This document shows, one piece after another, positions 33,388-34,103 of a stretch of 64,000 nucleotides of DNA. Source of the DNA: Eledone cirrhosa (Eukaryota); contig OZ024743.1 in assembly GCA_964016885.1 (NCBI GenBank), positions 123,008,001 through 123,072,000 of the forward strand, in the 5' to 3' direction. Position 1 is the first letter of the stretch; every line of letters starts with the position of its first letter. The notes beneath the pieces are model-generated. The model did not search any database and was not told the origin of the DNA. It saw only the letters and a program-made list of their open reading frames with translations. A program made the position numbers and the translations under genes.

Positions 33388-34103
33388 TATATATCATAAA
33401 ACATGTCTATAGAATCACAAGATAAAATATATACTATTTCCTCTCCCAATTAGCATAATTAACTATATAATAAATCGAATAGACCAGGCTATAAGAATGA
33501 GGCTTCTATGAAGGAATCTCCGACAAATAACCAAAACTAGCGCTTCGCATCGGCCGTAGTGGAATATTTATCGAATATTTCGACAGCGTAATCGCCTAGA
33601 TACAGTCAACTAAGCAGAATTAGGTTTAAAATAAACTAGGAGAAAATAGAATACATTCAAAGACCTCTACCATGGTTTCGTCCGTGTTTTGAGTTTTCCA
33701 ATAATTATGTAATAATTATATAAACTCGAGCGCCGGATTCTTCAGGAAGCTCGCTCATATCTAGACATTAAATTTTCTAAAACGATTCATTTCAAAATGG
33801 CTAAAAATCGTGACGTAGTCGCGCTCCAGTTGGAAGGTAGTTGCTAACGACTGGTGGCAATTTTTGCTAGAAAGCACAGCACAATACAGCCAAATTTTTA
33901 TCTCAACCTAGTGGGAGATTATTACATATAAAAGTTTACATATATATATATATATATATATATATATATATATATATATATATATATATATATATATATA
34001 CACATACACATACATATACGTGTTTTGCAACCGGTCACTTTGTGGCTCAATGAAAAATTAATAAATTAAACAATCAGAGCTATATATCATAAAACATGTC
34101 TAT
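33388..34103 (-). mobile_element. Monomer-length retrozyme-like element with terminal redundancy
   Basis: CATAAAACATGTCTAT repeated at 33395 and 34088; HHR at 33664-33749; GCTC-TGA..TCA-TT-GAGC hairpin at 34045-34080. Confidence 0.8.
33664..33749 (-). ncRNA. Type I hammerhead ribozyme motif
   Basis: CTTC-CTGAAGA-ATCCG..CGGAC-GAAAC-CATG-GTA-GAGG; palindromic stem III ACCATGGT; long structured loop II. Confidence 0.78.

Follow-up and report, generated by a model that had tools for sequence, protein, structure and literature searches.

The window analysed in the current study, a 64,000-nucleotide stretch of an Eledone cirrhosa contig (OZ024743.1), carries on its minus strand a hammerhead-bearing repeat inserted into a TA-rich tract. 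The features of this insertion, numbered by their position in the window, are the following.

33388..34103, minus strand: the insertion, made up of the last 23 nt of a previous unit and one full unit (693 nt here)
33388-33410 and 34081-34103: exact repeat of 23 nt, TATATATCATAAAACATGTCTAT, the two copies lying 693 bp apart
34081..34103, minus strand: 5' terminal redundancy, the unit's last 23 nt, element-internal
34045..34080 (read 34080-34045), minus strand: GCTC..GAGC hairpin, start of the tail
33926..34080, minus strand: internal copy of the tail, from T1 to T2, lengthened by an expanded TA tract (33940-34018)
33926..33939, minus strand: second 3'-end site, T2, GTAAACTTTTATAT, internal in the focal copy
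33663..33750, minus strand: type I hammerhead motif, called by motif and helix inspection
Parts of the hammerhead, minus strand: helix I GCUUC/GAGGU; core CUGAAGA at 33745-33739; helix II with a long insert; GAA
33676-33669, minus strand: palindromic helix III, ACCAUGGU; GUA, with the predicted cut between 33668 and 33667
33388..33394, minus strand: 3' end T1, ATATATA, at the point where the hairpin would come next, blending into the target (TA)n
34101..34128, minus strand: filler at the 5' joint, 19 nt identical to 33706-33724 plus repeated TTATATAAA
33331..33387: (TA)n target tract, 3' side
34129..34584: TA-rich target tract, 5' side

An earlier note on this DNA had described the same minus-strand layout, in which 23 nt of unit end are followed by the GCTC..GAGC hairpin, the hammerhead and an ATATA end. 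The 16-mer that it reported as duplicated 693 bp apart is real, and is contained in the 23-nt exact repeat. The focal unit measures 693 nt, compared with about 650-665 nt in the family, because its internal TA tract has expanded. As (TA)n lies on both flanks of the focal copy, a target-site duplication is not resolvable.

A second direct repeat, missed by the earlier note, was found at 33706-33724 and 34101-34119 (TATGTAATAATTATATAAA, 19 nt), and accounts for extra element-derived bases at the 5' joint. The origin of this filler is ambiguous: it may come from a template switch to the helix II insert, or from an 11-nt inverted arm from just past T2 with TA slippage, and two bases tell the two readings apart. 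In the helix II insert of the young subfamily (unit positions 325-343, corresponding to window 33706-33724), 11 nt are complementary to the sequence just past T2. The same segment of the unit recurs at 5' joints in the window and at two other loci (L014 and L029).

A direct repeat flanking an insert is also what an ordinary target-site duplication of host DNA would leave, but for these 16-23 nt that origin was rejected and can practically be dismissed. In the first 30 loci the 23-mer was element sequence, with either (TA)n coming next or GCTC as an internal junction. The same bases thus end copies at unrelated loci and form the internal junctions of arrays (TTTTATGATATATA directly followed by GCTC), and 1,360 exact terminal matches occur genome-wide. 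The duplication is therefore the terminal redundancy of the element, as had been proposed.

A dispersed hammerhead family in (TA)n tracts

The source assembly comprises 3.0 Gb, and TA microsatellites are plentiful in it. A DNA search of the genome gave 2,287 first-look candidates. Exact matches genome-wide numbered at least 878 for hammerhead 22-mers, at least 1,360 for T1-type 3' ends and 816 for T2 ends, and the reversed controls gave 0 in each case. The family is dispersed and multi-copy, with copies on many contigs. Its unit of about 660 nt (650-665) sits in (TA)n and is non-coding, no stop-free frame of 100 aa or more being present within it; the terminal repeat is a variable partial tandem and there is no LTR. 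A tree built from 96 complete units, some of them present in duplicate, was ladder-like, with identities from 75% to 99%, which suggests long activity. Before counting, 26-27 loci were dropped as the same insertion fetched again or as segmental duplicates (L109, L112-L115). One old insertion (L111-L115) is repeated five times within 340 kb via segmental duplication. A search for RNA runs containing the repeat found none. The depth of contigs from four runs of unrecorded kind rises toward T1, over part of the unit, and is uninformative on RNA.

Inspection of motif and helices was the basis of the ribozyme call. Rfam gave no hammerhead match in the window at the gathering threshold, and its matches at E<=10 were confined to microRNA models driven by microsatellites and to other weak hits outside the hammerheads; the folding z-scores of hammerhead and hairpin were not significant. 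Among 145 distinct hammerhead motifs (anchor allowing 3 mismatches) the core was intact in 123, and base pair 10.1-11.1 was A-C in 80. The 40-nt window containing the helix II insert showed only 42-45% identity between old and young subfamilies. Arrays carry two to four hammerheads, with one type I hammerhead per tandem unit. Penelope-type hammerheads cleave poorly in vitro (PMC4209133; here and below, statements on published work refer to parts of the papers cited). In the current family, 5' ends at or beside the predicted hammerhead cut were seen at loci L156, L139, L171 and L191; these would point to linear cut RNA, although genome-wide such ends fell at the predicted cut in only 3 distinct loci, compared with 1 at a single control site. 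By BLAST in a 100-arm sample, 7 of 55 at-risk arms ended at unit 379-386, four of these being TA microhomology joins about 10 nt downstream.

Judged from its sequence, the focal repeat is a new family of a known kind, namely a putative non-LTR retrozyme with the behaviour of a non-autonomous Penelope-like element. This identity, together with mobilisation by a Penelope-type enzyme, is regarded as highly probable. The Penelope-like traits found were partial tandems, 5' truncation, an adjacent inverted copy and an optional tail at one end between two fixed 3' ends. The single ORF of autonomous Hydra-clade elements (reverse transcriptase, CxCX5C linker and C-terminal GIY-YIG endonuclease) is absent, the unit being without an ORF.

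Like the metazoan non-LTR retrozymes, the family consists of non-coding, low-GC tandem units with a type I hammerhead, found scattered as monomers and in short arrays (Cervera and de la Pena 2020, PMC7229834; Li, Clavereau and Pollet 2026, bioRxiv 10.64898/2026.07.22.740005). Units of 51-972 bp were reported for those retrozymes, and Penelope-like enzymes were suggested to copy them from circles. The focal family differs from them, as they are described in these sources, in its 660-nt unit, its long helix II insert, the lack of a resolvable target duplication and the absence of a matching Penelope pseudo-LTR among the sequences found. It further differs in its fixed Penelope-type ends, its 100-nt tail and its head-to-head arms, and a circular RNA would here be deduced from genomic copies only. 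No cephalopod retrozyme was found in the openly accessible main texts covered.

The Hydra-clade Penelope-like elements share with the family the targeting of (TA)n, 5' truncation, partial tandems and the adjacent inverted copy, as well as an often one-ended tail and a hammerhead upstream of the end (Craig et al. 2021, PMC8557442; Arkhipova et al. 2013, PMC3846280). Unlike those elements as published, the focal unit has no reading frame, its tail measures about 100 nt instead of 30-40 bp, and its one-sided tail follows a near-strict T1+T2 rule tied to a common hairpin. Its hammerhead resembles the minimal hammerheads of Penelope-type elements, with a short helix I, an enlarged helix II and a palindromic helix III that would allow folding as a dimer (Cervera and de la Pena 2014, PMC4209133), and differs from those described there in the A-C at 10.1-11.1 of the young subfamily and in a helix II insert of about 50 nt that turns over between subfamilies.

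Fixed 3' ends and head-to-head insertions

In a position-ordered, hammerhead-anchored sample of 86 arms from 79 loci, 56 arms had their 3' end at T1, 23 at T2 (a class comprising ends at or within the TA tract beside T2) and 7 elsewhere. T1 closely precedes the hairpin, and T2 follows about 100 nt after T1, giving a tail of about 100 nt in the family. The examination of genomic copies suggested in the earlier note thus gave fixed 3' ends, variable 5' ends and commonly copies of more than one unit (19 of 100 T1-anchored arms). The note had placed the start of reverse transcription at one canonical site; the ends point instead to two initiation sites, T1 and T2. In the Anolis Penelope element as described, the tail lies between two start sites of reverse transcription, and the focal T1-T2 stretch matches this Penelope 'tail' (PMC11167929).

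The focal copy had also been taken as independent support for a rule linking the hairpin to the 3' end. One copy cannot give such support, because ATATA also matches the (TA)n target; the rule itself holds across the family and in three other families. In these families (A, B and C), ACTC..GAGT stands a few bases after T1, in the same place as the focal GCTC..GAGC. Across all four families, whose tails are unrelated, RCTC..GAGY follows T1, and the base of the hairpin shows an A-U to G-C swap. One hairpin survey had selected for hairpins and was not counted as evidence.

If pairing between cut (TA)n and AU-rich stretches of the RNA were all that fixed the 3' ends, the hairpin would be irrelevant. 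Both T1 and T2 finish in TA microhomology, and the GCTC..GAGC hairpin, taken by itself, has no better fold than shuffled sequences (z 0.89), as expected from such pairing. However, other TA-rich patches of the unit, near 580 and 620, are frequent 5' joints and none was seen as a 3' end, all four families keep RCTC..GAGY a few bases after T1 despite their unrelated tails, and the sequence preceding the family A end, CACTTCT, is no TA patch. The strict T1+T2 pairing of opposed arms, given below, also needs a positional signal, and pairing as the sole determinant is considered unlikely.

Inverted arms were surveyed at 172 distinct loci with 58 adjacent inverted pairs, 11 of which were dropped for a non-canonical end. 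The remaining 47 pairs with two canonical ends comprised 43 T1+T2, 3 T1+T1 and 1 T2+T2 (binomial p 3e-9 against even odds). T1+T2 made up 21 of 22 pairs in the hammerhead-anchored sample alone, and among 30 T2-anchored loci (overlapping the earlier loci) an opposite-strand T1 end was present in 14 and a T2 end in none. Inspection by eye of the four exceptions showed one to be T1+T2 (L175), two to be complex (L190, L033) and one to have a TA spacer (L062); the counts were left unchanged. The same pairing was seen in the other Penelope-type families, with 9/9 in family A (which has open reading frames), 10/10 in family B and 17/19 in family C (36/38 in total). Two such pairs lie in the window itself:

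29396-29860: family C head-to-head pair, hammerhead-bearing, T1 left and T2 right, with an ACTC..GAGT hairpin
23842-24340: family B head-to-head pair, T1+T2

Family C has 191 candidates in the genome. Young copies of family B contain frames near 750 aa, and the 3' untranslated region of this family measures about 1.5 kb.

The opposed arms are best accounted for by two independent priming events, which fit the nesting of the arms better than fold-back does and agree with the cutting and extension of both strands by the Anolis protein. Under fold-back, a single priming event would be followed by fold-back or self-priming, and the endonuclease would trim the tail off one end; self-priming on the antisense template (PMC3846280) and endonuclease resolution of an intermediate (PMC8557442) were both proposed in the sources cited. 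The T1 arm lay within the T2 arm in 24 of 44 pairs, as fold-back would predict, but this is about what independent arm lengths give. The T2 arm lay within the T1 arm in 5 pairs and neither was nested in 15 (n was 44 because no minimum arm length was set); since fold-back needs one arm inside the other, the non-nested pairs argue against its simple form, which appears improbable. Rare variants common to the two inverted arms are few (0.32 per 500 nt), so both need not derive from one molecule, a point counted against the circular template discussed below. Priming at two sites from both target ends is rated as probable on the pattern of arms. Several apparently single T1 arms (L048, L085, L020, L005, L170) carry tiny inverted T2 arms of about 30-50 nt, and two-ended priming may be commoner than counted.

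In LINE-1 twin priming, both target ends prime cDNA and an inversion results; the internal site used by the second primer varies, and the 3' end is not repeated in the arms. The focal arms, in contrast, both start at fixed sites and overlap in the template. A closer likeness is to Poseidon of Anolis carolinensis in vitro, for which two internal start sites bounding the tail, a stem-loop at the start, AT-rich targets, cutting and extension of both target strands and a predicted dimer were described (Frangieh et al. 2024, PMC11167929). For Poseidon no difference in start site between the strands was seen, whereas the focal genomic pattern predicts one site per strand within an insertion; the Poseidon start sites are also non-homologous to the target, whereas T1 and T2 both have TA microhomology. 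That the tail stands at one end only has already been published (PMC3846280; PMC8557442). For the strict rule of one site per arm, no statement was found in the openly accessible main texts covered.

Enzyme, template and proposed mechanism

Hydra-type ORFs with a CxCX5C linker and a C-terminal endonuclease are abundant in the genome, some of them young with frames near 750 aa. The Hydra clade was assigned by reading motifs against PMC8557442, and Pfam does not recognise these proteins. As published, Hydra elements insert in (TA)n (PMC8557442), and the Anolis Penelope protein cuts and extends both strands, starting at two internal sites that define the tail (PMC11167929). A tail shared with an autonomous element was found in none of 30 family-A loci, 30 family-B loci and 14 extended loci, a sample covering part of the families among the 55,160 candidates. 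Only the hairpin motif was common to the focal family and families A-C; we infer a Penelope partner from this hairpin and the layout of the ends only. Family A was rejected as the partner, its pseudo-LTR differing in sequence. One locus considered as a fusion (L212) proved to be an older focal unit nested in the TA flank at a family-A T1 end (L212:1100-1800), and the two families insert into each other's ends there.

The earlier note read the focal copy as the footprint of a circular or tandem RNA copied exactly once round. Templates of more than one unit are evident: of 100 position-ordered arms ending at T1, 19 exceed one unit and 2 exceed two, and the longest array, 5'-truncated as arrays are, reaches about 3.6 units (L102). 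The shape of the template, however, is not given by the focal layout, and 'exactly once round' did not hold up. 5' ends of the focal type (unit 636-641) recur at TATA microhomology in L002, L020, L023, L085, L094 and L106, making 'unit + 23 nt' one recurrent truncation class with several copies. In a circle closed at the hammerhead cut, moreover, the junction sequence is that of the genomic unit, and a junction read would not separate a circle from a line.

Two results of the current study would favour a circle. Truncation in the first 170 nt was more frequent in lap two (21/34) than in lap one (34/100; p 0.008), and the corresponding figures for T2 arms were 6/12 and 15/50. Adjacent units have 2.1 rare variants per 500 nt in common, compared with 0.04 for random pairs (about 50 times), and some rare variants are common to all units of L100 and of L102. 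Both results could have other causes, namely transcript starts or later recombinational loss of long repeats for the lap-two excess, and local duplication, as in L102, for the sharing of variants. Circular monomers have been shown for other retrozymes (PMC7229834), and circles were proposed as templates of Penelope elements, specifically for those copies that exceed one unit (Cervera and de la Pena 2014, PMC4209133).

With the element and the two-site priming unchanged, the template could instead be a linear tandem RNA that the hammerhead has cut partly or not at all; later local duplication or template jumps would then have produced the longer arrays. This would suit the mixture of two haplotypes in one array (L019), the two identical neighbouring units of L102, the arm that begins exactly at the predicted hammerhead cut and runs through a second hammerhead (L156), and the scarcity of T1 arms longer than two units (2/100). 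In the published account of the Anolis element, cleavage is not required for insertion and uncut RNA is the dominant substrate of the protein (PMC11167929). The lap-two truncation excess and the rare variants common to every unit of L100 and L102 speak against a linear template, as does the ladder-like lineage (75-99%), which would need repeated regeneration of sources longer than one unit despite heavy truncation. Also counted against a circle are ten common variants that were discordant in 23 tandem pairs and the absence of an A-to-G editing scar in the family (36 vs 47, p 1). Nearest-neighbour distances gave no separation of the two templates. On these genomic copies a circle is judged a little better than an even bet, and a linear template is given clearly less than even odds.

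Under the explanation preferred here, the focal copy is a 5'-truncated hammerhead repeat. A Penelope-like reverse transcriptase of the Hydra clade probably wrote it into (TA)n, an enzyme that probably begins at either of two fixed sites, one on each side of the conserved hairpin; it would have made one full lap of a circular RNA and stopped 23 nt into the second. Taken as a whole, this reading is assigned a probability of roughly 0.55. A transcript of more than one unit would cleave itself at two of its hammerheads, probably paired into a dimer by ACCAUGGU, and be ligated into a circle. The Penelope protein, probably a dimer, would then bind the hairpin tail and cut both (TA)n strands, one target end priming at T1 and the other at T2. 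Two long cDNAs would join head-to-head; where one cDNA is short or lost, a single arm would join the target by TA microhomology, as may have happened in the focal window.

More tentatively, and with less confidence than an even chance, a dimeric Penelope enzyme on the RCTC..GAGY hairpin of a circular hammerhead RNA may prime both cut strands, one site each side, with each enzyme circling and tending to stall soon after meeting its own first lap. If true, this dimer-on-circle mechanism would explain the tail, inverted pseudo-LTR and partial tandems of all Penelope-like elements, and the focal 'unit + 23 nt' would be a fossil of the stall.

The class of element, the one-sided tail and the circle hypothesis have already been published, and what the focal family adds is an example with good counts, not a system of a new kind. 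Two questions are open in the literature as far as the cited sources go, the origin of the tandem and inverted ends of Penelope elements and whether retrozymes are truly copied from RNA circles. The family provides natural insertions by the hundred, in which a short and well-delimited signal (T1, hairpin, T2) goes with a near-strict rule of one site per end. Both questions thereby become reducible to simple in vitro tests, for which a 660-nt RNA and an intact Hydra-type protein encoded in this genome would serve.

Other elements in the window

Another hammerhead motif, of a different family, lies on the plus strand at about 32000-32200 (core at 32008) and is followed by a GCTC..GAGC hairpin and a short tail. 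Loose matches to the hammerhead core were also detected on the plus strand at 31315, 32283, 32700, 53910 and 61018, some of which are probably ends of other Penelope-type families. A 692-aa open frame on the minus strand (46359-48437 and 48538-49119) contains RVT_1 and a zinc-binding stretch, and ends in a restriction-enzyme-like endonuclease motif, which we take to be of the R4/NeSL type. Pieces of another non-LTR retrotransposon with RVT_1 and zf-RVT are present at 43099-45968 and 49047-49946. A decayed fragment of a Hydra-type Penelope reverse transcriptase, with 8,350 candidates genome-wide, was found on the plus strand at 63386-63730.
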